A stretch of 64,000 bases of DNA from assembly GCA_036679645.1 (NCBI GenBank), contig JAZDCY010000056.1, forward strand, positions 93,820 to 157,819. The letters are read 5' to 3'. Below are positions 9,375 through 26,657 of this stretch, in pieces (position 1 is the first letter of the stretch; each line of letters starts with the position of its first letter). Source of the stretch: Gemmatimonadota bacterium (GTDB lineage: Bacteria > Gemmatimonadota > Gemmatimonadetes > Gemmatimonadales > GWC2-71-9). The position numbers and the translations under genes are program-made. The notes beneath the pieces are model-generated. The model did no database searches. It was not told the DNA's origin and saw only the letters and a list, made by a program, of their open reading frames with translations.

Positions 9375-10696
9375 CACTATGTGGCATAACACTTTTCGTG
9401 GGTTCGTCGGCCTCGCGGCGGTTGCCGTTGTGGCTCCATCTGCGGCTGCGCAACGCGCCGAGGTCGTGGGATACTCCCTCTCGACATCGTCCCGGGAAGC
9501 GCTCCTCACCTTCCATCTGACCGATGGAGCGACGCTGCCGGTCGGCCTTGTCGGCGGTACGGTGCGGATCGGCGAGGCCGCCGTGGGCGGCTACTCCCCT
9601 GGCGGGCAGCTCGAGTCTCAGTGGCGTGCCTTCCTGAATCAGTCCGCGGTCCTGTCGACCGCCGAGCTAATCGCGGCGGTCCACGAATGGGCGCCGGATG
9701 GTCTGGGCGATGGCGACCGGGAATCTGCCGGGATGCTGCGCGAGCTGTTCGTCCAGCTCCAGGCGGCCGCGATTACCACCCGGTTTCCGGCGGTCCCGCC
9801 CGTCCCGCAGATAGCCGGTGTTGGCAAAGTCAACCCGGCGATGGCGGGGGAAATCGCTGACGATGTGGTTGTCGCGACCGAGCTGGCAACTCGCATTGCA
9901 GAGGCGGTCGCTGGGGCGAGCGAAGCCCGCGAGCGCGCGTCGGGGGCCAGGGCGCTGCGCGACCGGATTCGCAACACGGTGCGGACGCGCGTGCGCGGCA
10001 ATACGCGGGATCGGGTTCAGCTTACATTCGGCGACCACGAGTCCCGGTCGGTCGGGGCCGTCGGACCCGTCGAAGCCGCCTGGCATGGGCTGCTTGGCGT
10101 CCTGGGAACGTTCGTGGCCCTGATGGGTGTGGGCTTTGGCGTGAGCTTCTTTGCCGACCGGCAGCTAGACGTCATGGCGGACACGGTGCAGAACTCGTTT
10201 GGCCGGTCGTTCTATGCTGGTGGGACTCACGCTCACCGTGATCGGCGTCCTGGTCATACCGATGGCGATAATAGCGTTCGTCGCCGCTCTGGCCGCTGCC
10301 GTCGCCGGCGGGTATCTGGCCGTCGCCCGGGTCGCCGGGGCCAAGTTCCTGTCCCGGAAACAACAGGACTACGGGGTCGAGGGTGCTGGCATGTTGCGGT
10401 CCCTCGCCTACGGCGTCGGCATCCTCCTGGCCATCTGGCTCCCAGCCGTGCTCCTGGGGTCGGCACCGGTTGCCGGATCGATCCTGACATGGACTGCCGT
10501 TGCAGCCACGTGGGGACTGGCCACGACGGGCTTTGGCGCCGCCATTCTGACGCGCGGTGGTCTGCGCGGCACCTTTGGACAGCGGTTCGCGCCGCATGCA
10601 ATCGCCCCCGATCACGTCTTCGCCGAACCTCTCGAAGACCCGCTGGCGACCAAGGTCGACACGGCCGAGTGGCTGGCAGAGGGAAGCCGGAAGTGA
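9367..10696 (+). pseudogene. Signal-peptide multi-TM envelope-stress membrane protein with frameshift at ~10214-10221
   Basis: Frame 1 is sensible up to SFGRSFYAG. The hydrophobic continuation MLVGLTLTVIGVLVIP...GLRGTFG lies in another frame (10199-10696). Confidence 0.7.
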
Positions 10697-11547
10697 GACG
10701 CCGCATCACGTTGCTGGCCAGCCTGGCCGTGCTTGCGACGGCTGGCTTGGCAAGCGCGCAGTCCTACCGCACGGTCGTGGAGTCACGACAGATGAGTGGT
10801 GAGCGAGACCTGAGTGTGAGCATCGGGTTCGCGGTTGGGCACATCCTGGTCGCACCCGCGCAGGGCCGCGAGCTTTACCGGCTCTCGATGGTCTACGACG
10901 AGGATTTCTTCCGACCCGATGTCCGGTACCGTGAGTCTCGCAACCGGCTCCGGGCCGAGCTCGAGTCGCTCGGTCGGCACGGTCGCCAGGACGCAGATCT
11001 GGACCAGCAGATCGACCTCGTCATCTCGCCATCGGTAGCGCTGGATCTGCATCTCAAGTTCGGCGCAGCGGAAGCGGATCTCGAGCTGGGCGGTCTGTCG
11101 CTCACGGAGGGACATATCGAGACCGGTGCGAGCGAAACAACCGTTCGCTTCTCCGCACCCAACCGCGCCGTCTGCGAGTCACTGCGATTTGAGGTCGGTG
11201 CCGCAGAGTTTGAAGCGCTGAATCTCGCAAACGCCCGCTGTCGCCTTATCAAGCTCTCCGCAGGCCTGGCTGAGATACTGCTCGACTTCACCGGTGAGTG
11301 GAGTGACGCGATCGAGACCAAGGTGGACATCGAGATGGGGTTGGGTGAGGTCCGACTGCGCTTCCCCGAAGACCTCGGCGTCCGGATCCGGGTCGATCGG
11401 TTTCTCGTCAGCGTCGATCGCAACGGCTTCGACAAGCGCGGCTCGACCTACACGTCGCGCAACTGGGACGACGTGACTACACACATCGAGATCGATATCG
11501 AGGCCGCACTCGGTAGCGTCGAAGTGGAGTGGGTGCCCAACCGGTAG
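10693..11547 (+). CDS. Exported LiaF/toast-rack-like beta protein
   Basis: GTG overlaps the upstream TGA. Signal peptide RRRITLLASLAVLATAGLASA; repeated G-A-(A/S)-E beta motifs; IEAALGSVEV C-terminus. Confidence 0.7.
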   Translation: MRRRITLLASLAVLATAGLASAQSYRTVVESRQMSGERDLSVSIGFAVGHILVAPAQGRELYRLSMVYDEDFFRPDVRYRESRNRLRAELESLGRHGRQDADLDQQIDLVISPSVALDLHLKFGAAEADLELGGLSLTEGHIETGASETTVRFSAPNRAVCESLRFEVGAAEFEALNLANARCRLIKLSAGLAEILLDFTGEWSDAIETKVDIEMGLGEVRLRFPEDLGVRIRVDRFLVSVDRNGFDKRGSTYTSRNWDDVTTHIEIDIEAALGSVEVEWVPNR

Positions 11548-11633: not shown

Positions 11634-12617
11634 ATGTCGGTCACGATTCGACGCGCGGGCCCCGCCGATGCGGCAGCCCTGACGGCGATCGCCCTTGCGG
11701 CGAAATCACACTGGGGATACCCCGACGCCTGGCTCGCAGAGTGGCGACCGCAACTCACGCTCGCTCCCGACTACGTAACCCGTAATCCGGTGTTCGTCCT
11801 CGAAGAGTCACGGGAACCGGTCGGATTCTGCGCCCTCGCGCGTGAACCGGAACATTGGCTACTCGATCACCTGTGGGTGTCTCCCGCCGCGCACGGTCGT
11901 GGGTACGGACGCGCGCTGTTTCGACATGCCGTTTCGTACGCCGCCGCTGAAGCACCTGCGCTCGCGGTCCGCATCGAGTCCGATCCAAACGCCGAAGCGT
12001 TCTACGCCCACATGGGCGCACGGCGCACTAGCACCCACCCAGGGCCAGTGTGCGGACTGCCGCGCGAACTCCCCGTCCTCATCTATGAGACCCAAATGAT
12101 CATTTCACGACCCGCTCCCGACGAGTACGCCCCCTACTACGGCGGCTACATCGACCAGGTACCGGACGGTGACGTCTTGGACCTGTTGCAACACCAGATC
12201 GGGCAGACGACCGACCTCATCTCGGGCGTAGCACCTGAGCGCGGCACATATCGTTATGCGCCGGAGAAATGGTGCCTCAACGACGTCCTCGGGCACCTTT
12301 GCGACACCGAGCGCGTTTTCACCTATCGGGCACTCCGCTTCAGCCGCGGCGATGCACAGGCACTGCCCGGCATGGAGCAAGACGACTACGTGACCGGAGC
12401 GAACTTCGCGGACCGCTCGACGGCGGACCTGCTGGAAGAACTCCAAACGGTTCGTGCCGCGACCATCACACTTTTGCGTTCGCTGACGCCCGAGATGCTC
12501 GCGCGGCGGGGCACGGCAAGCGATTGCCAGTTCACGGCCCGCGCCATTGCCTATGTCATTGCGGGACACGAGCGACATCATGTGCAGGTGCTCCGCGAAC
12601 GCTACCTCGAACGCTGA
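11634..12617 (+). CDS. GNAT acetyltransferase-DinB family fusion
   Basis: N-half SHWGYP..W, LDHLWVSP..HGRGYGRAL, SDPNAEAFY. C-half RPAPDEYAPYY, RYAPEKW...GHLCDTERVF, GHERHH. Confidence 0.8.
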   Translation: MSVTIRRAGPADAAALTAIALAAKSHWGYPDAWLAEWRPQLTLAPDYVTRNPVFVLEESREPVGFCALAREPEHWLLDHLWVSPAAHGRGYGRALFRHAVSYAAAEAPALAVRIESDPNAEAFYAHMGARRTSTHPGPVCGLPRELPVLIYETQMIISRPAPDEYAPYYGGYIDQVPDGDVLDLLQHQIGQTTDLISGVAPERGTYRYAPEKWCLNDVLGHLCDTERVFTYRALRFSRGDAQALPGMEQDDYVTGANFADRSTADLLEELQTVRAATITLLRSLTPEMLARRGTASDCQFTARAIAYVIAGHERHHVQVLRERYLER

Positions 12618-12642: not shown

Positions 12643-13824
12643 ATGGCGCAACTCCATCCGGGATCAAAGGATCGGCGTGCTCATGTCCGGCGTTGGGGCT
12701 GGACGCTCGCTGCGGGAGCGTTCGCCTGCGGGCCTTCGCTGGTTCCGACAGTGCCGGCCCCGGTGGTTCTTGCTGGAGCAATCGAGCACTCGGTCTTCTT
12801 CATCGGCGATGCCGGCGCTCCGGCCGTGCCCACCGATCCGGTCCTGATCGCCCTCCGCGCCGCGGCATCCGAGCACCCGGAGCGGAACAGCATCGTATTT
12901 CTCGGAGACAACGTGTACCCCATGGGGATGCCGGTGCGGGACGATCCGTCCCGGCAGGAATCGGAGCGGCGGCTCCAGGCACAGATCGATGCCGTGCCGC
13001 AGGGCGCCCGGGGCATCTTCGTCATGGGGAACCACGACTGGATTCGCGGCCGCGAGGGCGGGTTGGCAGCCGTTCGGCGCCAACTGGCCTACATCGCCGA
13101 TGCCGGCCGACCACTCGTCGTTGCGGCACCGACCGGTGGCTGCCCCGGGCCCGCGGTGATCGACGTCAGCGCGCGACTGCGCCTGGTGATGCTCGGCACC
13201 CAATGGTGGCTCCACGGGAGCGAGCGGCCCTCCGACCCGGCCTCCGCGTGCATCGCCGACTCGGAAGCGGAGGTCACCGACTCGCTCCGCACCGTCGTGC
13301 AAGCAGGTCCCGATCGCATCGTCTTGGTCGCCGGACACCACCCTTTGCGCTCAGGCGGGGTGCACGGCGGCAAGTTCGACTGGAAGGACCACATCTTCCC
13401 GCTGCGAGTCTGGAAGTCGTGGCTCTGGTTACCGCTTCCGATTATCGGGTCGCTGTATCCGCTGGTGCGGGGATCTGGCTTCTCGGCGCAGGACCTGGGC
13501 TCGGGACGCTACCAGACGATGCGGGACTCGATCGTCGCCGCCTTTGGCAGCCATCCGCCGCTTGCGTATGCAGCGGGGCACGAGCACAATCTGCAGGTTC
13601 TGGACGGCATGGGAGCTCGCTATCTCCTCGTATCGGGAGCCGGCATCTACGATCACCTCAGCCAGGCATTCCGACTCGAGGGTTCACTGTACGCGCGGGC
13701 CGCGAGCGGTTTCATCCGCATCGATCTCCTCCGAGATGGACGCGTTCGCCTCGCGGTGCTCTTGGCGGATGGAGACGGCCGGTTGACCGAGGATTTCTCG
13801 ATGTGGCTGGAGGAGAACCGATGA
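12643..13824 (+). CDS. Exported calcineurin-like metallophosphoesterase (probable lipoprotein)
   Basis: IGDAG, LGDNVY, GNHD, GHHP and GHEH motifs. LAAGAFAC lipobox-like N-terminus. Confidence 0.85.
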   Translation: MAQLHPGSKDRRAHVRRWGWTLAAGAFACGPSLVPTVPAPVVLAGAIEHSVFFIGDAGAPAVPTDPVLIALRAAASEHPERNSIVFLGDNVYPMGMPVRDDPSRQESERRLQAQIDAVPQGARGIFVMGNHDWIRGREGGLAAVRRQLAYIADAGRPLVVAAPTGGCPGPAVIDVSARLRLVMLGTQWWLHGSERPSDPASACIADSEAEVTDSLRTVVQAGPDRIVLVAGHHPLRSGGVHGGKFDWKDHIFPLRVWKSWLWLPLPIIGSLYPLVRGSGFSAQDLGSGRYQTMRDSIVAAFGSHPPLAYAAGHEHNLQVLDGMGARYLLVSGAGIYDHLSQAFRLEGSLYARAASGFIRIDLLRDGRVRLAVLLADGDGRLTEDFSMWLEENR

Positions 13825-16373
13825 GACGCAAGGTACCCGGCACGGCGCTCCTGTTGGCAGCCGTCTCAGTCGCGGGTCCCTCATCGACGCATGCACAACA
13901 GCGCGATAGCGTCCGGATCGCGGCCGGCTCCCAATACGATGCAGGTGGGTTCCACCGCCTCCTGTTCGGCGGTGATTATCGCGACCTGTGGCGTACCCCG
14001 ATCTCTGTGCTCATGCTCGACCTGGATACGGCGAGCGGCGGCCTCACACCGACGACCGCAGGTGGAGGATTCCAGACGAAGTCCCTGCGCTTCCGCGACG
14101 CGAACGGGTTCCTCTATGGATTTCGGTCGGTGGACAAGGACCCCGCCGTCCTGCCGGACGAGTTGGCCGGAACCTTCGTCGAGGACCTCGTACGGGACCA
14201 GACAAGCTCGGCCCATCCTGCCGGCTCCGGAATCGTTCCACCGTTATTGGAGGCGGTGGGCATTCTCCACACGGAGCCCCGGCTCGTCGTCCTCCCCGAC
14301 GACCCCAGGCTCGGTGTGTTCCGGGAACGCTTTGCCGGGACGTTGGGCTATTTCGAGCTGCGTGGAATTGTGGAACCCGGCGCGCAACGGTTCGCCAACG
14401 CGCTAGAGATTCTCGACAGCGACGACGTATACCCAATGGTGCGGCAGAGCCCGGCACATCGTATTGACACCCGCCAGTTTCTCACAGCACGGCTCATCGA
14501 TCTCTTGATCGGCGATTGGGATCGTCACCGGGGCCAGTGGGGCTGGGCGCGCTTCGATGACGCAACCGTCACCTATTGGACTCCCATACCCGAGGACCGC
14601 GATCAGGCCTTTGCGCGCTTCGACGGCCTGTTCCTGTCGCTGGGACGGGCAGCGGCCCCGCAGCTCGTGAACTTCGGCGATGACTATCCCAACATGGTGG
14701 GCCTCACGTGGAACGGGCGGGAGAGCGACCGGTGGTTTCTCGTCCAGCTGGAAAAATCCGTGTGGGATTCGGTGGCTGCCGCGGTGCAGGCGCGAATCAC
14801 GGACGCGGTCATCGACGCCGCGGTCGCGGGCATGCCCGTCGAGTATCAGGCAATCGACGGCGACCGCATGCGCCGGGCGTTGCGCGCGCGCCGCGACAAA
14901 CTGCTCGAGGCAACCGACCGGTTCTACCGCGTGATCGTGGGAGAGGTTGACCTCCACGCAACGGAGGCGGCGGAGTTCGTAACGATCGACCGACATGCCG
15001 ACGGCAATGTGACCGTCGAGATCACCGAGCGTCGTCCCGGCGCAACTCCCTGGCTCCGCCGCACGTTCGACGCGAGCGAGACCAGCGAAATACGGCTCTA
15101 TCTCTATGGCGGCAACGATCGCGTCGTCGTGCGCGGGGACGGGCGAGGCATTGGCTTGCGGATCATCGGAGGTGGGAGCGACGAGGTGGTGGATTCCTCG
15201 CGTGCCGGCGGCGTCAGGTTCTATGCGACGGGGGTCGATCGCACGAGTGGGCCCACCGGGGTGCAGGTGGACCGCCGCGTGTACACGCCACCAGCCAAAC
15301 GGTTCGAGAGGGAACTGCCGCCACGCGATTGGGGCCACCGCTGGATGCCGGTGCTCTGGGCCGGTGGCGGGCCCGACATCGGTGCATTCGCGGGATTCGG
15401 CGCGTTTGTAACTCGGTGGGGATTCCGCAAGCTGCCGTACACATATCGGATTCGCGTACGCGGTGGCTACGCCACGGCAGCAAGGGCATTCCGGACCGAC
15501 CTGCTCGCGACGTTCTATCGCATGAATTCCCGGATCCACGGTGACGTGTACGTCCGTGCGTCCGGAATCGAGGTGCTACGCTTCCACGGTCTAGGAAACG
15601 AGACGCAGCTCGACCGCCCGGATGATTTTTACCGTGTCACCCAGGACCAATACACTATCCAGCCGACGGTCACCGTTCCGCTGGGAACCCCCGCGACAAT
15701 CACGTTCGGGCCTCTCGCGACCATCAGCGATACCGAGGCGCAACCGAACCGGATCATCGATTCACTCCAATCACTCCAACCGTTATACGGGGCCGGACAC
15801 TTCAGTCAGGTCGGATGGCAGACTAGCGTGAGGTTCGATACCCGGGACGTCGCGGCCGCGGCTTCGCGGGGGGTAGCCATCGACGTTGGCGGCTCGGTCT
15901 ACCCCGAGCTGCTCGACGTGGTAACGACCTTTGGTGAGGCCCACGCCACGGCATCGACATATCTCTCCGTCGGTGGCCCGGGCGCGCCCGCAGCAACGCT
16001 TGCCCTCCGCGCCGGTGGAAAGAAAGTCTGGGGAACTTTCCCCTTCCACGAGGCCGCTTTCATAGGAGATGACGCGACGGTGCGCCTGGGCCGCCAAAAT
16101 CGTTTCGGCGGTGACGCCGCCGCGTGGGGCAACGCGGAACTCCGGCTGCGGGTGGCAAAGATCTCCTTTCCCTTGCCGGGCCATTTCGGCCTGCTAGGCC
16201 TCGCGGACGCCGGACGCGTGTTCCTCGAGGGCGAATCGTCGGACGACTGGCATACGGCGTTCGGAGGCGGCATCTGGTTTTCCTTCCTCCAACCGTCGAA
16301 TACCATAAGCGCGGCGGTTGCGCACAATAGTGAAGACGTGCGGTTGTATGTACGGGCCGGGTTTGCTTACTGA
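13821..16373 (+). CDS. Omp85/BamA-TamA-type barrel protein with N-terminal atypical kinase-like domain
   Basis: ATGA overlap with the phosphoesterase; signal peptide; GGGFQTKSL, IGDWDRHRGQW, PEDRDQAF; amphipathic beta C-half ending YVRAGFAY. Confidence 0.8.
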   Translation: MRRKVPGTALLLAAVSVAGPSSTHAQQRDSVRIAAGSQYDAGGFHRLLFGGDYRDLWRTPISVLMLDLDTASGGLTPTTAGGGFQTKSLRFRDANGFLYGFRSVDKDPAVLPDELAGTFVEDLVRDQTSSAHPAGSGIVPPLLEAVGILHTEPRLVVLPDDPRLGVFRERFAGTLGYFELRGIVEPGAQRFANALEILDSDDVYPMVRQSPAHRIDTRQFLTARLIDLLIGDWDRHRGQWGWARFDDATVTYWTPIPEDRDQAFARFDGLFLSLGRAAAPQLVNFGDDYPNMVGLTWNGRESDRWFLVQLEKSVWDSVAAAVQARITDAVIDAAVAGMPVEYQAIDGDRMRRALRARRDKLLEATDRFYRVIVGEVDLHATEAAEFVTIDRHADGNVTVEITERRPGATPWLRRTFDASETSEIRLYLYGGNDRVVVRGDGRGIGLRIIGGGSDEVVDSSRAGGVRFYATGVDRTSGPTGVQVDRRVYTPPAKRFERELPPRDWGHRWMPVLWAGGGPDIGAFAGFGAFVTRWGFRKLPYTYRIRVRGGYATAARAFRTDLLATFYRMNSRIHGDVYVRASGIEVLRFHGLGNETQLDRPDDFYRVTQDQYTIQPTVTVPLGTPATITFGPLATISDTEAQPNRIIDSLQSLQPLYGAGHFSQVGWQTSVRFDTRDVAAAASRGVAIDVGGSVYPELLDVVTTFGEAHATASTYLSVGGPGAPAATLALRAGGKKVWGTFPFHEAAFIGDDATVRLGRQNRFGGDAAAWGNAELRLRVAKISFPLPGHFGLLGLADAGRVFLEGESSDDWHTAFGGGIWFSFLQPSNTISAAVAHNSEDVRLYVRAGFAY

Positions 16374-16445
16374 CACCCCGCCATCGCTGCTAGGAGGCCC
16401 GATGACGAGCCACATGGATTCGATCGAGACGCTGGGACCTAGGCC

Positions 16446-18078
16446 GTGGAGGTAGTGAGCGACCGGGTCCGACCACTCACCACGACATCCACCAGCCAGC
16501 GCAGTTCCAGCGCGTGGACGTGGAGTCTGGCGTCGCTGCCACCGGATCTTCTCGAGCAATCGTGCAAGCGGATTGCCATCGTCGCGATGGTCTTTGCGGG
16601 GCTCTGGATGCTCCCTCTGGTTCTCAACCCGGTTGCGCTCCGATTCGCACCCGATGACCCGTTCGTGGCAGGCGCCGCGTGGCCCATGCCCGGCAGGTTA
16701 ATCGCGGGACTCGGGCTCCTGCTGTCGCTGGGAATGGTCTTCGTGGCGGCCAAGCTGCACCCCGCACCCTCCGTGCTGTTGAACACTGGGCTCGGATTCG
16801 AGGTCGCAACGGCCCTGCTGATCGGGATTCTCAATCAGTGGCAGCCCGTCCTCGTTCCCGGCCGTGCCTCCTGGATATGCATCATCATTCTGATCTATCC
16901 CGCGATCGTACCCAATACACCCACCAAGACGTTCATCGCCGCGTTTGCTGCCGCGTCGATGGACCCGCTCGGGTTCGGGATTGCCATGGCGCGCGGCGCC
17001 GTCCCCGCGGGTGAATTCACCGCCTTCACCGCCCTGTGGTATTTCCTCCCGGCGTACCTGTGTGCGGCCCTTGCAGTAGTTCCGGTACACATCATCCGGA
17101 AGCTCGGGCGACAGGTCAGCAAGGCCCGGGAGCTGGGCAGCTACCGCCTCGGCGAATCGATTGGGACAGGCGGGATGGGAGACGTCTACCGGGCGGAACA
17201 TCGGCTGCTGGCACGACCAGCCGCGATCAAGCTGATTCGCCCCGCGCTCCTTTCCACAAGCCGCCGGGAGGCGACGGTGATCCTCGAGCGATTCCGCCGC
17301 GAGGCCGAGGCGGCGGCGCTGTTGCGCTCCCCGCATACCATCGAACTCTACGATTTCGGCGTGGCCGAGGAAGGGACGTTCTACCTGGTAATGGAGCTAC
17401 TCGATGGACTCAGTTTCGAGGTGCTAGTCGAGCGATTCGGCCCGGTTCCGCCAGAACGCGCGGTGTATCTCATGCTCCAGGCCTGTGCCTCCCTGGCCGA
17501 AGCACATTCCACTGGTCTGATGCATCGTGACATCAAGCCATCCAATATCTTTACCAACCGTCTCGGGCTCGAGGTCGATTTCGTCAAAGTGCTCGATTTT
17601 GGCCTGGTCAAGGCAGACCCCGGAAACGGGGTCGAGCAATCGGACCGGCACGCCGGCGTTCATGGCGCCGGAGGTCGCGCTCGGCGAGGAGACCGCCGAC
17701 CACCGCCTCGACGTATACTCGCTTGGGGCGGTACTCTATTGGATGCTCACCGGTCAGCTTATCTTCGAGGCATCCAATCCGATCAAGATGATGCACCGAC
17801 ACATTAGAGACCAGCCGACGCCACCGTCGCAACGTACGGAACTCGACATACCACCCGAGCTCGACGACCTCGTCATGGCGTGTCTCGCGAAAGACCCTGA
17901 AGCGCGACCCGCGAACGCCGCGGCACTCGCCCATGCACTCGCCGAGATCGAGTTCCAAGAGCCGTGGACCACTGAGCGGGCGGAGCGTTGGTGGGATATG
18001 CACGTTCCAGACTGCATGACCGCCGGCGGCCCGTGCGACCAGGGAACGCTGGTACCTGCGTTGTCAGTCGCCGGGTAG
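16446..18078 (+). pseudogene. Membrane Ser/Thr kinase, frameshifted in the activation segment (~17643)
   Basis: N-terminal TM helices, GTGGMGDVY, HRDIKPSN and DFGLVK in one frame. TGTPAFMAPE..DVYSLG continues in another frame to 18078. Confidence 0.85.
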
Positions 18079-18089
18079 TCTCCACGCAC

Positions 18090-19514
18090 ATGCGCCGCGC
18101 CCTCCGAACCACCGTCGGCCTTACGGCGCTCCTTCTCGCGGGTCGTATTCCGATCATCGCGGCACAAGAGGCCGACACGGCCCGGCTTCGGAACATTCTC
18201 GATCTCAGTACGTCCCTGGAGACGCTCTCCACTCGGATAGCCCCGGCCGTCGTGCAGATCTTCACGACCGCCCTGGGACCCGTCGCGCCGGGATCCGGCG
18301 CCCAGCGAGTGGGTCTCCAACGGCGAGGTGGTTCCGGTTTCGTCCTGACATCGGACGGGTATATCCTGACGAACGCCCATGTGGTAGCGGGAGCACGCTC
18401 AGTACAGGTCCTGCTCGCACAGGCTGCCGCGCCCGATGCGCCCGGTCGGTCCGTCATACGGCCGGGGGGAAAGCGAGTGACCGGTACGGTTGTGGGGGCC
18501 GATTCAGAAACGGACTTGGCGCTCATCAAGATAGATGAGACCAATCTGCCGTTTCTCCAGTTTGGCGATTCGGACGAACTGGGCCCCGGGAACCTCGTAC
18601 TCGCCTTCGGAAGCCCCCTTGGTTTGGAGACCTCGATCAGTCTAGGCATCGTGAGCGCCGTGGGGCGGCAGCTGCGGCCGGAAAGCCCTATGGTCTATAT
18701 CCAGACAGATGCACCAATCAATCCTGGAAACAGCGGCGGTCCCCTCGTGGACACACGGGGACGTGTCATTGGCATCAACACGCTGATCCTCTCGCAGTCG
18801 GGCGGCAGCGAAGGCGTGGGCTTCGCGGTACCAAGCAACATCGCACGGAGCGTCTACGGGCAGCTCCGCAGTGCCGGGCATGTACGCCGCGGTATCGTCG
18901 GAGCCAACGTGCAGACGATCGACGTGGTCATGGCGGACGCACTTCGCCTTACGCAGGATTGGGGCGCGATCGTGACCGATGTGTTTCCGCGTTCCCCCGC
19001 CCAACAGGCGGGGCTGCAGGTGGGTGACATCATCGTCTCCCTCGATGGAAAGCCCATGGAGAACGGGCGCCAGTTCGACGTCAACGTCTATCAACGCGCC
19101 GCGGGCGACATCATCCGTCTCGACGTGCGGCGCAACCTCCAGCGGCTCTCCCTGCAGGTGCGCGTGGTTGAGCGCGACCGCGACCCGAATCGCTTCGCGG
19201 ATATGGCTCGCTCCGAAGAAAATCTGGTGCGTCGGCTCGGCATACTGGCCCTCGACGTGACGCCGGCCATTGCACGGCAGATGCCCTGGCTGCGCATGCA
19301 GACCGGCGTCGTCGTGGCCGCGCTTGCCGCCGACGTTCCGCGCATCGAGACCGGTCTCCGGGCAGGTGATGTGATTCATGCCGCGAACGGCGCCGCGGTC
19401 ACGTCGCTCGCGATGCTGGCGGCGTTCCTCAACCAGTTGGACGTGGGCGATGCGGTGGTGCTGCACGTCGGCCGGTTCGGACGTCTTCGGTTCGTTGCAT
19501 TCCGCATCGAGTAG
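18090..19514 (+). CDS. HtrA/DegP-family serine protease with two PDZ domains
   Basis: GSGF, LTNAHVV, DLALIK, IQTDAPINPGNSGGPL, two PDZ-like regions and a signal peptide. Confidence 0.93.
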   Translation: MRRALRTTVGLTALLLAGRIPIIAAQEADTARLRNILDLSTSLETLSTRIAPAVVQIFTTALGPVAPGSGAQRVGLQRRGGSGFVLTSDGYILTNAHVVAGARSVQVLLAQAAAPDAPGRSVIRPGGKRVTGTVVGADSETDLALIKIDETNLPFLQFGDSDELGPGNLVLAFGSPLGLETSISLGIVSAVGRQLRPESPMVYIQTDAPINPGNSGGPLVDTRGRVIGINTLILSQSGGSEGVGFAVPSNIARSVYGQLRSAGHVRRGIVGANVQTIDVVMADALRLTQDWGAIVTDVFPRSPAQQAGLQVGDIIVSLDGKPMENGRQFDVNVYQRAAGDIIRLDVRRNLQRLSLQVRVVERDRDPNRFADMARSEENLVRRLGILALDVTPAIARQMPWLRMQTGVVVAALAADVPRIETGLRAGDVIHAANGAAVTSLAMLAAFLNQLDVGDAVVLHVGRFGRLRFVAFRIE

Positions 19515-20910
19515 ACGCGCCCTGCGGTGCGCGTTCTCGACACTCCTGCTGTGTACGACATCAGGCGCGGCAACAGCCCAAACTCACGACGGTTCCGGCA
19601 ACAGCTATTGGGGAACCATACCACCACCGCACGATTCGGTAAGCGCGGTATTCGCCAGCGGGCCACGCCCCGTCTGGGAAACCGTCTTGCTCGTCCCATA
19701 CTGGATCATGGGACTCCCGCTACGACTCCTCGCGGTCGGCGTCGGGGAAGGTGTCGAGTCCCTCGACGAGTCGGGCATTGCCAGTACGGTGGGTGGCTGG
19801 CTGGGTCCACGCACCGGACCGTTCGGGGTCGTCGTCAGCGCGCGGGCCGGCGGATTGAGTGGCGTCGGAGGCGGAGTGGCCGTTGAGCACACGGAGCTGT
19901 TCAATCGACCGGGTACCGCATTTCGCGGGCGGGTAGCCGGTACGTTCATCGGTGACTTTCGCGCGAGCGGCGCGGTGCGAGTCCCCTTCTCGGAACGCAG
20001 CCTGCTCGACGTGGGCACTGGGTATCGATTTCGCAACAGGGTTCGCTACTTCGGTATCGGGCCCGAGCGCGGCGCTGAGGACGAATCGATATTCCGCCAA
20101 CGTACATGGTGGCTGGGAGGCGAGGTCACCGGCGGCTGGGGAGATCAGATCACCGCGACCGCCAGCCTCGTGTTTACGAGTGTCAAGCCACTCGACGCGC
20201 GTGAACAGGACCAGAACAGCGACGACCCGCCTATCACCGTACGCTACGCAGACTCCCTGCCACCTGGCTTTGGCGAGACCTCTAACGGCATGGCTCTGGG
20301 GGCGGAGATCATGCACCAGGACGCGACGGATACTGGTAGGCCGATGAGTGGCGGTATCCGTCGTGCCATAGTCGGCTACTTTCGTGGGACCGGCGGCGAG
20401 ACGACCGAGTTCTGGAACGTACGGGGAGAGCTGCAGCAGTTCGTGCCGCTGTGGTATCGACATCACGTACTCGCCCTTCGGCTGGCGACCTCGTGGATGC
20501 AGCAGATTGGCGACGCGCCCATTCCGTTCACTCGCCTCATCTCGAACGACGATCCGGACCTCCTGCGCGGCTTCGACGACTTTCGCTGGCGCGACCGTGG
20601 GCTCGCGGTGCTGTCAGCGGAGTACCGCTGGCCGTTGTGGGCGTATGAGCGTGCGCAAGGTGCGGGCCTCGACTTCTACCTGCTCACAGATGTGGGACAG
20701 GTCTTCAGCGACTTCGACGACATCCGCGGAGAGAACCTGACATTCTCGTATGGCGCCGGCCTGCGACTCGTCACTGCAGCGGGCTTCGCGCTGCGCATCG
20801 AGTATGCGCTCAGCAACGAGGACGTGGCGTTCCGCCTGCGTGGCGATCAGATCTTCCAGACCTTCCGAGGGGCGCTCTACCATGGACGCGAACCGAACCC
20901 CGCGCGCTAG
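19495..20910 (+). CDS. Omp85/BamA-TamA-type outer membrane barrel protein
   Basis: RYFGIG, LRGF loop-6 motif (DLLRGFDDFRWRD), SAEYRWPL, DVGQVF, SYGAGLR. Start uncertain (TTG 19495). Confidence 0.8.
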   Translation: MHSASSRRALRCAFSTLLLCTTSGAATAQTHDGSGNSYWGTIPPPHDSVSAVFASGPRPVWETVLLVPYWIMGLPLRLLAVGVGEGVESLDESGIASTVGGWLGPRTGPFGVVVSARAGGLSGVGGGVAVEHTELFNRPGTAFRGRVAGTFIGDFRASGAVRVPFSERSLLDVGTGYRFRNRVRYFGIGPERGAEDESIFRQRTWWLGGEVTGGWGDQITATASLVFTSVKPLDAREQDQNSDDPPITVRYADSLPPGFGETSNGMALGAEIMHQDATDTGRPMSGGIRRAIVGYFRGTGGETTEFWNVRGELQQFVPLWYRHHVLALRLATSWMQQIGDAPIPFTRLISNDDPDLLRGFDDFRWRDRGLAVLSAEYRWPLWAYERAQGAGLDFYLLTDVGQVFSDFDDIRGENLTFSYGAGLRLVTAAGFALRIEYALSNEDVAFRLRGDQIFQTFRGALYHGREPNPAR

Positions 20911-22564
20911 GCTCGTCTCGCTGGCTGCGGGCGCGCTCCTGGTTTCCGCTTCGGGAGCGCTGCTCACGCCGTTGCGCGACGCTCCCGTCGCGTGGTACGC
21001 GGATGATATGCGCAACATAGCGGAACCCGCGGAACGCGAGCCGCACATCGTCCGCGCGGCGATCGACGCCACGCTATTCAGGCCGTTCGGTCGCTTCTTC
21101 CATCCCGGGCGGCTTGTCCGTCGGGTCGGTACTGCATTTGGAGGAGATCATGTTCCGGCCGCGGCGAACCTCAATGCGCTGGACGAGGTCCCGAATTCGA
21201 GTTGGTTCACGAATCGCCTCGGGCTCTTCCCGAGCGCTCCCGCCGTCGCCGCGCGGGGCCCAGCGGTGGGTGAAGGTCCATCAGCCCCGTGGACGGTGAT
21301 TCGCCCGAAGACGCAAGGTGTGACACCAGGGTTCGATATTCGGGACGCCAACGGACAGGTCTGGGTCATCAAGTTCGACGTTGCAGGATTCCCCTCGATG
21401 TCCACAGCCGCAGGGGTCATCGCGGGGCGGATCTTCCATGCGGCGGGGTACAACGTGCCTGACGATCGGGTCGTAACGTTCACGCGCGACCAGCTCCAGG
21501 TCTCGCCCGATGCCGAGATGCGCGAGGGTGACGACCGCCGTCAAATGACCCATGCCGATCTGGACGAGCTACTGGCGCGCGTGGAGCGCAATCCGGACGG
21601 GAGCTGGCGCGCTCTCGCGAGCAGGTTCCTTTCCGGTACGCCGGTTGGGCGCTTCGACTGGCGAGGACGGAGGCGAGACGATCCCAACGATCGGGTCAAC
21701 CATGAGAACCGACGTGAGATTCGCGGTCTAGCGGTCTTCGCCGCGTGGCTCTGCCACTACGACACCAAGCAGGGGAACACGCTCGACATGTACGTCGAGG
21801 AAGATGGGCGTCGCTTCGTCCGTCACTACCTCATCGACTTTGCCTCCACCCTTGGGGCGGGCGGGACCGGTCCCTTCCCCGCCGCCTGCTACGAGTACTC
21901 ATTCGATTTCGGTGCTTCGTTCCTCCGTGTCCTGTCACTGGGCGTCTACCAGGACCCCTGGCGGCGGCTCGAGCGTCCCGAGGGGCTCGATGAGATTGGA
22001 TACTACGAGAGCGAGGTCTTCTCCCCTCGCGGGTTCAAGCCACTCGAGCCGAACGCCGCCTTCGCCAATCTGACGGATCGGGATGGCTATTGGGCAGCGA
22101 AAATCATATCAGCGTTCACGGACGCGCACCTGGAAGCGATGGTTGCGGGGGGACGCTACCGCACGCCGGAGGCGGCGCGTTGGATGCGGCGCGTGCTGGC
22201 AGAGCGGCGCGACGAGATCGTGCGGTACTGGTTCAGCCGGGTACCACCGCTGGATTTCTTCACGTACCATGACGGGACAGTGCGATTTCACGATCTCGGG
22301 ACGAGAAGCGGGATCTTTTCGGGGTCCGAGACGCGTTACCGTCTGAGGGTGGCCTACGCGACGCCGACGCGCGACCTTGGTCCCACGACCGACTGGCTCG
22401 AACTCGAGCGGACGGAGACGGCGCTCTCGCAGATCGCAATCCCGGGCACCCCGGAGCCGTTCATAGCGATCGAGACCCAGCTCACACGGGGGGCGCGCTG
22501 GAGCCATTCGGTGACCGTGTTCATCGCGGCCGCGAGCGGGCGCGTTGTTGCGCTCGAACGATAG
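20882..22564 (+). CDS. Exported protein with HipA/protein-kinase-like motifs
   Basis: Hydrophobic N-terminus; KTQGVTPG..RDANGQVWVIKFD; HYDTKQGN (DxKxxN); YLIDFAS (DFG-like). Confidence 0.7.
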   Translation: MDANRTPRARLVSLAAGALLVSASGALLTPLRDAPVAWYADDMRNIAEPAEREPHIVRAAIDATLFRPFGRFFHPGRLVRRVGTAFGGDHVPAAANLNALDEVPNSSWFTNRLGLFPSAPAVAARGPAVGEGPSAPWTVIRPKTQGVTPGFDIRDANGQVWVIKFDVAGFPSMSTAAGVIAGRIFHAAGYNVPDDRVVTFTRDQLQVSPDAEMREGDDRRQMTHADLDELLARVERNPDGSWRALASRFLSGTPVGRFDWRGRRRDDPNDRVNHENRREIRGLAVFAAWLCHYDTKQGNTLDMYVEEDGRRFVRHYLIDFASTLGAGGTGPFPAACYEYSFDFGASFLRVLSLGVYQDPWRRLERPEGLDEIGYYESEVFSPRGFKPLEPNAAFANLTDRDGYWAAKIISAFTDAHLEAMVAGGRYRTPEAARWMRRVLAERRDEIVRYWFSRVPPLDFFTYHDGTVRFHDLGTRSGIFSGSETRYRLRVAYATPTRDLGPTTDWLELERTETALSQIAIPGTPEPFIAIETQLTRGARWSHSVTVFIAAASGRVVALER

Positions 22565-22574
22565 GGAGAATCAG

Positions 22575-24071
22575 ATGGCTACGAACGCTTCGCGGGATGG
22601 CCAAGCAAGCGCCGTAGATCGTTTTCTGCGCCTGTTCACAGAGGTGCGGGGCGGCGAGAGCACGACGGCGCTGCTGCTCGCGCTCAATGTTTTCTTGTTC
22701 CTGATGGCCTACTCTGTCATAAAAGTGCTCCGAGAACCCCTCATCCTGGCCGGTGGGGGAGACACGCTGAGCGGCGCCCAGCTCAAGGCGTACACGGCCG
22801 CCGGCTCGGTGTTGCTGTTGGCGGTCATCGTCCCCCTGTACGGGGAACTCGCCGGCCGCGTTCCCCGGCGCCGTTTGATCAATATCGTAAGTGCGATATT
22901 CGTGCTGGCGCTCGGCGGATTCTTCCTGCTGGCCCAAACCGGTCTTAGCGTCGGGATTCCCTTCTTCATCTTCGTCGCGATCTTCAGCGTGATGATCATC
23001 GCCCAGTTCTGGGCGTTCGCGAACGACGTCTATACGGAAGAGGAAGGAAAACGCCTCTTCCCCATCGTGGGCTTTGGTATGTCGGCTGGAGCGATCGCCG
23101 GGGTGTCGGTTACAATAGCGCTCGAACCGCTGGGGCTCAACGTGCTCTTTCTCCTCTCGGCCGGGGTGCTCGTCCTGGCTACCGCGATGACCAACCTGAT
23201 CGACCACCGCGAGCGACGCCGCACCGAAGCAACCGTACCGGATGCCATGACGAGTGGATTCCTGCCGGCGGCGACGGGGCAGTTCCGTGCGGCGACGGGA
23301 GAACTCAAGGCCACCGCCGAGAGTGAGGAGTACCAACGTGAGACCGGCACCTTCCGGACGGTCAAGCCCGGACAATCCATCGAGGAGACCGAGAAGGAAC
23401 AGATCGAAAGCACCGCGGGCGCCTTCGCCCTGGTCTTCCGCAACCGGTACCTGCTCCTCATAGCACTCCTGGTCATGCTACTGAACTGGGTCAACACGAA
23501 CGGGGGGTTCTTCCTGGATGACTTCATCACGCGGAGCGCGGAAGCGACCGTGGCCGACAATCCCCAAAGCGACCTCAGCACGGGTGAAATCATAGGTTCG
23601 TTCTACGCACGATTCTATTTGGTCGTGAACATCGCCACGCTCTTGATCCAGGGCTTTGCGGTATCGCGCATCATCAAGTACTTCGGTGCACGAGGAGCGA
23701 TCCTCTTTCTGCCGATCATCGCGCTTGGCGCGTACACGCTCGTGGCCTTCATCCCAGTGCTGGCCGTCGCACGGTGGGCCAAGACCGCGGAGAACAGTAT
23801 CGATTACTCACTCAACAACACGGTGCGCAACGTGCTGTTCCTGCCGACGACGCGGGAGGAGAAGTACAAGGGCAAGCAGGTCACGGACGCCTTCTCCCAG
23901 CGCGCCGGCGATGTCCTGAGCTCCGCGACGGTGTTCGTGCTGACGGGCCTGCTGGGCTTTGGAGGAATCGCCCTCGTGTACCTCAACATCCCGCTGGTGA
24001 TCATCTGGCTGATCATCGCGGTGGCACTCGGGCGCCGGTACGGACGCCTCGCGGCCGCAACGGGGACCTAG
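22575..24071 (+). CDS. NTT/TLC (Npt1/Npt2) family nucleotide (ATP/ADP) translocase homologue
   Basis: AYSVIKVLRE, QFWAFANDVY..EEGKRLFP, KTAENSIDYSLNNT, EEKYKGK; many TM segments; GGGAG RBS. Confidence 0.88.
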   Translation: MATNASRDGQASAVDRFLRLFTEVRGGESTTALLLALNVFLFLMAYSVIKVLREPLILAGGGDTLSGAQLKAYTAAGSVLLLAVIVPLYGELAGRVPRRRLINIVSAIFVLALGGFFLLAQTGLSVGIPFFIFVAIFSVMIIAQFWAFANDVYTEEEGKRLFPIVGFGMSAGAIAGVSVTIALEPLGLNVLFLLSAGVLVLATAMTNLIDHRERRRTEATVPDAMTSGFLPAATGQFRAATGELKATAESEEYQRETGTFRTVKPGQSIEETEKEQIESTAGAFALVFRNRYLLLIALLVMLLNWVNTNGGFFLDDFITRSAEATVADNPQSDLSTGEIIGSFYARFYLVVNIATLLIQGFAVSRIIKYFGARGAILFLPIIALGAYTLVAFIPVLAVARWAKTAENSIDYSLNNTVRNVLFLPTTREEKYKGKQVTDAFSQRAGDVLSSATVFVLTGLLGFGGIALVYLNIPLVIIWLIIAVALGRRYGRLAAATGT

Positions 24072-26353
24072 TCGGCCTCGGACCGCCGTTTCTTGCGGAG
24101 TGCCTCGAGGTCTATCACGATCGAGGCGTTCGACTGCAGCAGGTCATTCAACACCGTATCGGCCGAACGGCGTTCGGTGGTCTGCTTCCGCGTATCCTCG
24201 AGAAACGGCCACAGGGCCTTGCGAATTTCATCCGGCAGCGCACTCTCCAGGTATTCGAGCGCGGTGCCGCGGAGGTGCGCGTCTTCCGTATGCAGGCCCC
24301 GGAACGCGATCTTGAGCGGCTGACGGGGCAAGACGAGCGCAAGCATCGTAAACACGTGCTCGAGGCTGCGATTCGCTCGCTGTCGCAGCATCTCATCCAT
24401 GACCGGAGACCAGGACTCGTCTTCCATCTGATCCAGGATGCGATGGCTCTTCCACACCCCCTGATCGACGGCAACCTCACTGAGCACCGCCTCCTCCACC
24501 CGTTGCCGGCTGATGACCAGCTTGGGATTCCGATCCAGGAGGCGTGACAGAGCGCGGCCACAGCGGTACCTCACCTCGAAGCGCGAGTCGCGCAGCGCGC
24601 TCAGAAGCCCATCCACGGCGCGCCGATTGGGGCATGACGCGAGGACGAGCGGAAGCCGCCGCCGCACGGCGAAGTCCTCATCGGGATCGAGCAGCCGATC
24701 GCACAATTGCCCGGTCGCGCGTGGTGCGACGTCGCGCAGGGTCGCAATAACGTCCTGAGCCACAGCGTCCCACGCGAGTAGCGGCACCGCATATGCGACG
24801 AGTGAGAGCGGGAACGGGCGGGTCGCGAGCACTCTGCGAACCGCGGTCGCGTCGCGAGACCGCAACTCGCCGATCTGCGCGAATTCCGGCGTGAGGGTGA
24901 CCGCCGACGGCGAGGACCGCGCCGGCACCGCCGGCCGCTGCGCAGATGCGCGGACCTCTTTCAATGCCGGTCCGCTCGTATCGAATAGCGTCATACCCAA
25001 CGCCCCGGCCGTCTGCAGCAATGCCGTGCGGGTAGCCGCCTCGCGCGCCTCAGCGAGATCCAACTGCCCTGCGCGCGATAGAAGACTCCGTTCCAGGGCC
25101 TTCACGTAACCGCGCTGCAGACGAATGGCGAGCATGGCACCAACGAGTGACACGGCGATCGTGAGTCCCAACAGGACTCCGGTCACCGCGCCGACCGCGA
25201 CCGCGACGATGGTAACCTGAACGATCGCGCCCCCGATCACATCTCCGAGCCGAACCGCGCCGACGTCTACCAATACCTTGGTCGCGCGTTTCTGGCGCGG
25301 GGCGAGCGGAGCGAACAGCATCTCGTAGCCGGCTCGGTATAGCCCGTTCCGCATCACAGACTCGGCGCCCCGGACACCGATGATCATGCCGAGCCGGGGC
25401 GCGACGAGCGCAGCCGCTCCACCGAGCGCTATGGTTGAGGGAAGGAGAGCAACCGTACGCCCGAGTCCCAACCGCTCCAGCGACAGGCGACTTCCGACCG
25501 CCTGCACGATCACCGTGAGAAGGGCGACGCCGGTATAGAACACCGCAAAGAAACGCAGCAGGGATTCCCCACTGCCGAACGACGCGGTCGCGCGCGCCTT
25601 GAACACGTAGTCGATGAGTCCTTCGCCAATCGTCGTGACGAGTACGAGTGCGACCAGACCACGCAGGTATCCTGTTCGAGCCAGGAGCTTGACGCCGGCG
25701 AACGTGCTCTTCTCGGTGCGGGCTCCTGCGCGTACCGCGACACCGCCGCCGCGACGCACTCCTAGGACCGTTACCGCACACAGGACGTGCAGTGCGGCGA
25801 GGATTGGAAGCATGGCGGTTATCGAAAGGAGCGCAGCGGATCGTTCGGCGAGAATTCCCCCAAGCAGCCCACCAACGGTACCACCCGCCGCTATCCGTCC
25901 GATCTGACGTTTCGCCGTACGCGGGTCGAAGCGCTCGCTCACGATCGACCAGAAACCGGAGATCAGGACCGCACCGAGACCGGAGAAGTGGAAGTACACG
26001 GCAACCGCGACCGGCCGGCGGAAGGTATCCACGAACATCCACTCCGTGAGGAGCAGCGCACCGCTCACCAGGAACGCCAGCGGGACCACCCGTGCCGGGC
26101 CGAGCGTCATCAGGACGCGCGTCGTGCCAAACGCGAGCAACACCGACACCACCGCCGCGGCCATGACCATCGCCGGCAACGCCGAGATATCGAAGCTCGA
26201 CAGGAACAGCGCGTCACGAGTCGCCTTGGCTGCCATCTGGAAGGCGATCATGACGGTGGCCGTCAGCGTCGCAGCAAAAACCGCGGAACGGAGATCCCGA
26301 TCAGCGGTGATGGTCAGGCTCCGATGGGGCAGGTGTGAGGGTGACAGGCACAC
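24068..26353 (-). CDS. NTT-family transporter fused to HEAT repeats
   Basis: KATRDALFLSSF, ISGFWSIVSERFDPRTAKR, LIDYVFK, KVLVDV. C-terminal HEAT-like repeats (DEDFAVRRR, DSRFEVRYR, EDAHLRGTALEYL). Start uncertain. Confidence 0.85.
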   Translation of the reverse strand: MCLSPSHLPHRSLTITADRDLRSAVFAATLTATVMIAFQMAAKATRDALFLSSFDISALPAMVMAAAVVSVLLAFGTTRVLMTLGPARVVPLAFLVSGALLLTEWMFVDTFRRPVAVAVYFHFSGLGAVLISGFWSIVSERFDPRTAKRQIGRIAAGGTVGGLLGGILAERSAALLSITAMLPILAALHVLCAVTVLGVRRGGGVAVRAGARTEKSTFAGVKLLARTGYLRGLVALVLVTTIGEGLIDYVFKARATASFGSGESLLRFFAVFYTGVALLTVIVQAVGSRLSLERLGLGRTVALLPSTIALGGAAALVAPRLGMIIGVRGAESVMRNGLYRAGYEMLFAPLAPRQKRATKVLVDVGAVRLGDVIGGAIVQVTIVAVAVGAVTGVLLGLTIAVSLVGAMLAIRLQRGYVKALERSLLSRAGQLDLAEAREAATRTALLQTAGALGMTLFDTSGPALKEVRASAQRPAVPARSSPSAVTLTPEFAQIGELRSRDATAVRRVLATRPFPLSLVAYAVPLLAWDAVAQDVIATLRDVAPRATGQLCDRLLDPDEDFAVRRRLPLVLASCPNRRAVDGLLSALRDSRFEVRYRCGRALSRLLDRNPKLVISRQRVEEAVLSEVAVDQGVWKSHRILDQMEDESWSPVMDEMLRQRANRSLEHVFTMLALVLPRQPLKIAFRGLHTEDAHLRGTALEYLESALPDEIRKALWPFLEDTRKQTTERRSADTVLNDLLQSNASIVIDLEALRKKRRSEAD

Positions 26354-26657
26354 CGGCGCGCACGTCTAGCGCCAACGCGGCCGATCCATCACGCACGGCA
26401 ATCTCGACGGTGCCGTTAGATCCGACGAAGGCCAGCAATGCCCCGACCACCAGATGAACCGTCCCTTTGGAAAACCGTTGCCAACTGCGCGCCAAGAGGT
26501 ACGTAGCCGAAGACACATCACCCAGCGAGAGATCATGCGTAATGTCTACGAAGCGGATCGTGGGATCGATGCCGAGCATGGCGGCCTTCATCTCGGCCAC
26601 GTAGGCATCGGCGGTGCCGAAATAAGTGAGGAGGGTGACGAGCGGCACTCCGCTCAA
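26301..26657 (-). pseudogene. Internally deleted SAM hydroxide adenosyltransferase / chlorinase-fluorinase (DUF62) gene
   Basis: N-terminus LT(Y)FG.ADAYVAEMK, DITH, GTVHLVV joins directly to C-terminus GS.G.VEIAVRDGSAA. The VDPGVG core is missing and the conserved Asp is Tyr. Confidence 0.75.

Follow-up and report, generated by a model that had tools for sequence, protein, structure and literature searches.

What NTT carriers do in free-living bacteria is posed as an open question in the available text of PMC5381601, and a locus in the genome of a Gemmatimonadota bacterium (assembly GCA_036679645.1) raises it in a concrete form, as two NTT proteins are encoded there beside two predicted exported kinase-like proteins, two Omp85 barrels and a predicted exported phosphoesterase. 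The locus occupies positions 12643-26353 of the 64,000 nucleotides (nt) of contig JAZDCY010000056.1 analysed here (contig positions 93,820 to 157,819, hereafter the window). The periplasm is free of ATP in the textbook view, and the initial annotation of this DNA had proposed one complete module in which the NTT proteins export ATP and recover ADP for kinases outside the cytoplasm, with the phosphoesterase as eraser and the barrels as a display or export route. That interpretation is partly supported by the present analysis. ATP export for phosphorylation in the periplasm is the best reading of the locus, with chances that we put slightly better than even, and it differs from the earlier proposal in that two modules are joined here and that the barrels look like anchors on the periplasmic side.

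The eight genes are real, seven on the plus strand and one convergent, as had been annotated, and their clustering exceeds chance; Pfam also backs the labels given to the metallophosphoesterase (MPP), the barrels, the Hanks kinase, HtrA, the NTT carrier and the NTT-HEAT protein. The locus is the union of two modules frequently encoded apart, namely module A, composed of the barrel Omp2, the kinase-like protein K2 and the stand-alone NTT carrier, and module B, composed of the phosphoesterase and the fusion of the kinase-like domain K1 to a barrel, with the Hanks kinase and HtrA as accessory parts. Neighbourhoods were compared in the best 80 of 585 confirmed K2 loci, a set skewed to close relatives, whose labels span seven phyla (20 loci have no label). 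Omp2 was immediately upstream of K2 in 76 of the 77 loci with enough flank and the carrier immediately downstream in 36/67, while a carrier or NTT-HEAT was present in 39 of the 52 loci with 6 kb downstream. Among the 35 fully flanked loci, the stand-alone carrier was observed in 28, NTT-HEAT in 16, the Hanks kinase in 13 and HtrA in 8. The modules are usually apart, as K1 was present in only 1/80 K2 loci, and the gene order Hanks-[HtrA]-NTT-[MPP]-K1-Omp85-NTT-HEAT recurs without K2, indicating that the window holds a union of two carrier-linked arrangements. DUF4956 or PPK1 was found in none of the 80 K2 loci. In L041, L051, L062, L068, L072 and L077, which mostly carry Krumholzibacteriota labels, Omp2-K2-NTT leads straight into a chemotaxis-looking operon (CheA/CheW/CheR-like by eye), and the trio is frequently preceded by an NlpC/P60 lipoprotein.

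The recurrence of NTT-HEAT and the membrane Hanks kinase beside both modules would also fit a sensing or scaffolding function of the NTT proteins in the membrane, within a signalling chain that includes the HEAT domain, the Hanks kinase and HtrA, the exported kinase folds being non-catalytic or otherwise fed. This view could draw on the loss of canonical transport residues described below and on the NTT-HEAT(-cNBD) fusions, which are without known activity in the available text of PMC5381601; we consider it quite improbable, as the fully flanked K2 loci hold the stand-alone carrier far more often than the Hanks kinase or NTT-HEAT and many charged residues of the carrier are invariant.

Conserved co-occurrence, on which the initial annotation depended, was also seen in a survey of 201 Gemmatimonadota genomes, with matches to K2 in 20, K1 in 70, any NTT in 101 and DUF4956 in 86. 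The kinase-linked carrier clade was delimited at 600 bits, a cut placed at a gap in the NTT scores after the gap had been seen, giving 25 full-length matches. K1 or K2 was present in 25/25 genomes with such a full-length carrier against a background of 79/201, and the carrier lay within 8 kb of K1 or K2 in 19/25. In a FastTree phylogeny the 33 kinase-linked carrier rows fall on one branch with support 100, and the pairing of a single carrier clade with two kinase-like families lacking significant mutual alignment (K1 against K2 profile probabilities of 3.5 and 15.7) counts in favour of ATP export. In a second sample of 121 Myxococcota genomes, where the clade threshold was E below 1e-90, K2 was detected in 10 genomes, the carrier in 18 and both in 8, and by the listed coordinates the two were within 6 kb on one contig in 6 genomes.

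K1 displayed a second type of neighbourhood. Among 95 K1 matches in the 201 genomes (98 listed, with two second pieces and one weak hit excluded), 17 were near the carrier, 37 near DUF4956, 0 near both and 41 near neither, and the 79 metagenome K1 loci contained the carrier in 6, DUF4956 in 32 and a CYTH-PPK1 fusion in 32. When fetched loci were taken in, 22 of 150 K1 domains were near NTT or NTT-HEAT, 80 near DUF4956 or PPK1 and 0 near both, an exclusivity as expected if the carrier and DUF4956/PPK1 both supply a phosphoryl donor. Repeated swaps between the two kinds of neighbour are not shown, since the NTT-side K1 rows, three clusters in an open polytomy in one tree, merged into one branch (support 79) in a tree of 47 hand-picked rows; kin are not independent in these counts. 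The source genome itself encodes DUF4956 and PPK1 outside the locus, about 55 kb apart on the same contig, C6; there (L239:4819-8108) DUF4956 is followed by a 363-residue exported protein without Pfam match, convergent with another metallophosphoesterase, and this protein may itself belong to the exported kinase-like proteins.

The kinase-like domains of K1 and K2 gave no Pfam or NCBIfam match, and no CotH (PF08757) hit was obtained for either at E 0.1. An AlphaFold2 model of K1-Omp85 (114-row alignment; predicted local distance difference test, pLDDT, 89.9; predicted template modelling score, pTM, 0.87) nevertheless gives K1 a bilobal atypical kinase fold of the CotH/PI4K/HipA/CtkA group. Structure comparison of residues 61-372 of the model retrieved CotH (5jda, Z 14.9, 246 aligned residues, root-mean-square deviation 4.0), and the kinase domain also matched PI4KIIa (4pla, Z 14.3, 266 aligned, deviation 4.7), CtkA (3akj, Z 13.3) and HipA (Z 11.3); a Foldseek search with the entire model listed solely BamA/TamA barrels, and a viral structure library returned kinase matches that were weak only. 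D234 and D259 are invariant (114/114 rows) and the usual metal-binding Asn site is Gln in 109/114, the catalytic and metal roles being those that we presume from motif spacing. The C-terminal part is an Omp85 superfamily member, with a modelled barrel of 16 strands within residues 506-846, a match of residues 506-848 to the TamA barrel at Z 26.7 and a Pfam Omp85 match marginally below cut-off (E 6e-5). No POTRA was hit in Pfam, and no alpha/beta POTRA-like segment lies between kinase and barrel in the model secondary structure.

The phosphoesterase, the candidate eraser, matches Metallophos (E 2e-5), carries a lipobox-like AFAC at Cys29 and has metal motifs that we take to be of the purple-acid-phosphatase-like class. 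It was present in 37/79 metagenome K1 loci, in many of them immediately adjoining K1, and 114 of 120 longer homologues combine MPP, K1 and barrel in one protein; the named ones are mostly from Bacteroidota, with Chitinophaga, Adhaeribacter and Mucilaginibacter among them. Judged from the K1 model, a kinase-fold domain is thus hidden in the Bacteroidota 'Metallo' Omp85 proteins. A Riemerella metallophosphoesterase described as secreted by the type IX secretion system was considered as a relative, and no connection to the MPP family could be made.

For K2, motifs and weak matches argue for a kinase-like protein, so that the kinase label of the initial annotation is borne by a modelled fold in K1 and by these lesser signs in K2. 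At least 3203 homologues were found among 7992 candidates scored, with 1218 representatives at E below 1e-30, and the kinase-type pattern of Lys, Asp-x4-Asn and Asp-Phe is highly conserved among 135 diverse homologues (K164 in 132, D294 in 131, N299 in 127 and D319 in 131). The nearest named atlas clusters, Fam20C (0.81), HipA_2, LepB_N and PI3/4K (range 0.79-0.81), are leads only; HipA-type Pfam matches under cut-off occurred in 5/36 homologues, and K2 profiles found no match among PDB sequences. One homologue, P0323, bears a C-terminal PAP2 phosphatase domain, a second kinase-phosphatase pairing. The source genome encodes two further K2 paralogues (C66:66445-69467 and C17:3367-6510), the former with its own Omp2-like barrel, and no carrier match was seen near either copy.

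The relation of K2 to its barrel was examined by complex prediction. Omp2 is above the Pfam cut-off and aligns to the K1 barrel at probability 96, and the predicted Omp2-K2 complex scored 0.85 against 0.00 for the best control, a mark also reached by 116/157 solved pairs and 2/215 mismatched pairs in the benchmark; the runs share at least 90% of contacts, with a partner pLDDT of at least 87. In the predicted interface K2 contacts the segment that precedes the Omp2 barrel and two Omp2 turns, whose counterparts in the alignment with the K1 barrel are the connections between strands 12-13 and 14-15. These even-to-odd connections are presumably periplasmic by Omp85 topology, so the predicted docking site of K2 is on the periplasmic face of Omp2; the model speaks for binding of the two proteins. 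In the available text of PMC11116518 the enzyme domain of PlpD remains periplasmic; with this precedent and the docking prediction, the Omp85 barrels of the locus look like periplasm-side anchors, and the earlier idea of a display or export route loses ground. A surface role, in which the barrels translocate or display the kinase domains in a type V or two-partner-like manner, for use of external ATP or action on other cells, appears highly improbable. It would be in keeping with Omp85/TpsB barrels that export partners (PMC11116518), with the Omp2-K2 gene order, which resembles a two-partner pair, and with CtkA, a secreted kinase, among the K1 fold matches. On the other hand, POTRA is missing from the K1 model, the predicted position of K2 and the PlpD precedent point inwards, and a lipobox-like motif occurs in 53/128 diverse K2 proteins (the K2 of the window has a predicted signal peptide without lipobox).

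The stand-alone carrier is assigned by sequence to the NTT/TLC family, the two TLC scores of the locus being 45.6 and 27.8 bits against a cut-off of 21. Its profile matches solved NTT1 structures (9j3n, E 1.5e-15; 9j3j, E 1.3e-10) with homology over the full carrier length, it has about 10 hydrophobic segments by a heuristic, and it has in common with NTT1 translocases a C-terminal K-x-K-x-K...D motif; the score against NCBIfam TIGR00769 was 38 bits for a cut-off of 387. The convergent gene product is likewise recognised as an NTT-HEAT fusion, with TLC above cut-off, HEAT_2 just below it, and profile matches to 9j3j (E 1.2e-20) and to alphaRep HEAT repeats.

Under the preferred reading of ATP export, an inner-membrane carrier of this type would send ATP to the periplasm and take ADP back. 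K1 by fusion and K2 by docking would be held beneath their own Omp85 barrels and would phosphorylate an envelope substrate, from which the predicted exported phosphoesterase may remove the phosphate, while NTT-HEAT, the Hanks kinase and HtrA may have a regulatory role and polyphosphate would serve as an alternative donor route in most K1 relatives. A carrier without a phosphate site might run an electrogenic exchange of ATP out for ADP in, aided by the membrane potential, and this could suffice because a kinase returns ADP and no free phosphate. The substrate is perhaps a molecule in transit through the barrel or retained at it, a protein and a glycan or lipid head group being about equally likely.

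Several observations weigh against ATP export, beginning with the carrier residues. ATP transport by AtNTT1 is tied to four charged residues, K155, E245, E385 and K527 (PMC10654386, PMC4256464, available text). In the kinase-linked carriers, whose residues were mapped by hand with a single offset of 84 on chain 9j3j of the profile alignment, E245 is replaced by Gly, E385 by Asn (38/38) and K527 by Asp (38/38), with a small residue at the K155 site and a Lys four positions earlier in 37/38. As three of the four residues are replaced, the carrier is on these alignments not a canonical ATP/ADP translocase of the NTT1/Tlc1 type, and only family membership stands from the NTT/TLC label of the initial annotation. 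Its Asp446 lies at the site of AtNTT1 K527 and PamNTT1 K446, the gamma-phosphate/inorganic phosphate (Pi) lysine, and K527 is described as needed for triphosphate, not diphosphate, transport (PMC4256464). According to the available text of PMC2606016, the K446E exchange in PamNTT1 blocked Pi transport; when ADP was imported against internal ATP the Km fell from 1401 to 29 uM (its Table 1), and when ATP was imported against ADP it rose from 8.6 to 552 uM, with a low Vmax and with ATP export judged impaired by the authors. These data would fit a Pi-free outward-ATP exchanger and equally a non-triphosphate carrier. Moreover, the sister NTT clade bears the same Asp in 21/22 rows, which is therefore not specific to kinase-linked carriers, and Asp446 was rejected as a specific marker of ATP export.

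Further points on the same side come from the gene neighbourhoods. No carrier was present in 13 of the 52 K2 loci with 6 kb downstream, 48/150 K1 domains were near neither donor module, and the exclusivity of K1 neighbours may come from one switch, because the NTT-side K1 proteins form one branch. In 10/18 myxobacterial carrier genomes neither K2 nor a K1 kinase domain was detected, a finding at odds with strict coupling. Three of these 10 have the carrier 2.3-2.4 kb from a protein of 1000 residues with PEP-utiliser and PPDK_N domains and a signal-peptide-like N-terminus (L264:10042-13452, L267:9956-13027 and L268:10067-13192, all on the minus strand), a domain order that we take to be water-dikinase-like, and this is possibly a third, unrelated exported ATP consumer. 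Dikinases release AMP and Pi, so such a partner would support ATP supply and not simple ADP return. The remaining 7/10 genomes had no dikinase-like neighbour among the proteins scanned. Beta-lactamase-like neighbours were seen in 4/10 kinase-less carrier genomes, on a scan of 18 of the neighbours; in L264 and L267 the carrier and the dikinase-like gene are separated by exported beta-lactamase-like genes, and in L267 and L268 an NTT-HEAT-like start comes next. Finally, the single-sequence AlphaFold model of K2 reached a pLDDT of only 37, and the extracytoplasmic placing of both kinase families, as annotated earlier, is by a hydrophobicity heuristic only, with signal-peptide-like N-termini in 105/120 K2 (internal controls 0-1/120) and 98/120 K1 proteins (control segments 13-25/120).

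The lost triphosphate lysine also suits a carrier that serves periplasmic enzymes by moving another nucleotide or only retrieving ADP or AMP, the donor of K1 and perhaps K2 being polyphosphate or another NTP. DUF4956/CYTH-PPK1 is a far commoner neighbour of K1 than NTT is (80 against 22), the genome has both genes elsewhere, and dikinase-type partners would yield AMP, not ADP; we regard this possibility as fairly unlikely, as DUF4956 and PPK1 are absent from the K2 loci and a DUF4956 match is absent in 13/22 genomes having K1 and the carrier. The myxobacterial carriers without kinases could instead reflect inward flow, with the barrels admitting extracellular nucleotides or phosphorylated nutrients, the kinase folds and phosphoesterase binding or processing them, and the carriers importing the products. 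Exported acid-phosphatase-like enzymes frequently scavenge phosphate, and the characterised NTTs discussed in PMC5381601 are all from parasites or organelles and take up nucleotides. Nevertheless, scavenging seems unlikely: the residue favouring ATP import is Asp in this carrier, the catalytic-type kinase residues are near-invariant and needless for a binding-only role, and in the source genome (4.05 Mb, 92.7% complete) atpD, purM and pyrB all score above cut-off, indicating genes for ATP synthase and for de novo synthesis of purines and pyrimidines, which also leaves energy parasitism unsupported.

The sister clade (L182-L199; C25:756-2036 in the source genome) is within 125 nt of NAD(P)-type reductase genes in 12/19 loci, its neighbours being aldo-keto reductase or NAD-epimerase-like with twin-arginine-like N-termini in 7/8 inspected, and this suggests service to exported nucleotide-dependent enzymes as a general role of NTTs in free-living bacteria. 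Other NTTs occur as divergent pairs (L180, L181). A wider proposal, which we hold tentatively and with somewhat more doubt than belief, is that NTT carriers are a general reversed cofactor supply line to the periplasm in free-living Gram-negatives, with an ATP clade for barrel-anchored kinases (in some myxobacteria an exported dikinase-like enzyme), the sister clade for exported NAD(P) enzymes, and exported polyphosphate as an interchangeable donor.

Table 1. Genes of the locus, with positions in the window and the basis of each assignment (aa, amino acids).
Feature	Position	Strand	Basis and remarks
MPP, predicted exported metallophosphoesterase, 393 aa	12643..13824	+	PF00149; fused to K1 and barrel in relatives
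K1-Omp85, 850 aa: predicted signal peptide, predicted atypical kinase domain, beta-rich linker, Omp85 barrel	13821..16373	+	AlphaFold2 model, fold matches
Membrane Hanks-type Ser/Thr kinase, about 5 N-terminal hydrophobic segments, frameshifted in the window; accessory	16403..18078	+	Pkinase in two frames
HtrA/DegP-like protease, two PDZ domains; accessory	18090..19514	+	Pfam Trypsin_2, PDZ_2
Omp2, POTRA-less Omp85 barrel, short N-terminal segment, start uncertain	19495..20910	+	PF01103, E 1e-12
K2, predicted exported kinase-like protein, 560 aa	20882..22564	+	Conserved motifs, weak matches; no Pfam family
Stand-alone NTT/TLC-family carrier, 498 aa, kinase-linked clade	22575..24071	+	PF03219, E 6e-12
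NTT-HEAT fusion of about 760 aa, in convergent orientation to the NTT gene	24068..26353	-	TLC E 1.5e-6, HEAT_2 E 1.2e-5

The genes are closely packed, with gaps of -4 (the overlap of the phosphoesterase gene with K1-Omp85), 29 and 11 nt through HtrA and of -29, 10 and -4 nt from Omp2 onward. Between HtrA and Omp2 no firm spacing can be given, as the start codon of Omp2 is uncertain, and an in-frame TTG near 19495 as start would overlap HtrA by about 20 nt. A promoter and terminator scan of the locus gave results at chance level, and close homologues carry Gemmatimonadota labels. The Hanks kinase gene is frameshifted near position 17642, where a 23-nt gap is seen against a same-genus homologue; the gene is probably intact and the frameshift an assembly error, because a contig at depth 108 from the probable source run holds 23 more bases at this site, and a pseudogene was rejected on the same ground. 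Immediately 5' of the phosphoesterase, a GNAT-DinB fusion (11634-12617, +) was observed that adjoins K1 in just 1/79 loci. Immediately upstream of NTT-HEAT is a 118-residue S-adenosylmethionine (SAM) hydroxide adenosyltransferase (26301-26657, -) with a big internal deletion that leaves N- and C-domain fragments. Further out, 3' of an extracytoplasmic function (ECF) sigma factor and an anti-sigma-like gene, the long open reading frame at 9367-11547 (and 10199-10696) resembles two genes, a membrane protein and a LiaF-like one, fused by a frame change near 10200, which may be a second assembly indel.

The locus offers a testable answer on free-living NTTs, in which a carrier is combined with two possible consumers, their anchors and a putative eraser, and the kinase-fold domain in the Bacteroidota 'Metallo' Omp85 proteins makes the idea testable in cultured, tractable hosts. 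If the cofactor-supply reading is true, bacteria would have reversible periplasmic phosphorylation like the eukaryotic Golgi kinase system. The system was not found described in the literature searched, a body from which subscription papers and supplements were largely outside coverage, and its parts are comparable to several known systems. With the NTT/TLC translocases (AtNTT1 9j3j, Chlamydia NTT1 9j3n and PamNTT1) the carrier shares full-length homology, the number of hydrophobic segments and the C-terminal motif, whereas the host here is free-living and has genes for ATP synthase and de novo nucleotide synthesis, the E245/E385/K527 equivalents are replaced, the gene neighbours encode exported enzymes and the proposed direction is outward. 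NTT and NTT-HEAT proteins have been reported in free-living bacteria, with Gemmatimonadetes in the taxon table (Major, Embley and Williams 2017, PMC5381601), and the NTT + HEAT architecture is the same; the main text of that report names no function for NTT-HEAT(-cNBD) fusions and no Omp85, exported kinase or phosphatase neighbours, and no cNBD gene follows the fusion in our locus.

In the available text on Omp85 architectures (Heinz and Lithgow 2014, PMC4104836), the 'Metallo' type is a PF00149-Omp85 fusion of which MPP and K1-Omp85 are the split form, on two genes here and fused in relatives, and Omp2 resembles the 'noNterm' barrels. PF00149 is labelled metalloprotease there and the word 'kinase' is absent from the main text, whereas the middle domain has a kinase fold in our model. 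Unlike the BamA/TamA/TpsB translocases, periplasmic POTRA domains were not detected in these barrels. PlpD (patatin-Omp85; Hanson et al. 2024, PMC11116518) similarly has a periplasmic enzyme domain N-terminal to an Omp85 barrel, but it is a phospholipase with POTRA and no nucleotide need. CotH is the best non-barrel match of K1, which differs in lacking a Pfam CotH match and in its fusion to an outer-membrane barrel; the available text of PMC12189002 covers CotH only. An accessory cassette of cotH, polyphosphate polymerase and DUF4956 beside Gram-positive pel operons (bioRxiv 10.1101/768473) is similar to the K1 relatives that adjoin DUF4956 and the CYTH-PPK1 fusion, although the neighbour in this locus is an NTT carrier and donor export is not proposed in the available text of that work. 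The closest logic, an atypical kinase outside the cytosol together with a nucleotide exchanger, is shared with the Fam20C group, the nearest named atlas cluster of K2, as a lead only. Fam20C-group kinases of the secretory pathway are fed by an ATP/ADP exchanger of the endoplasmic reticulum and Golgi, whereas the setting here is the bacterial periplasm, with another carrier family and with anchoring on Omp85 barrels.

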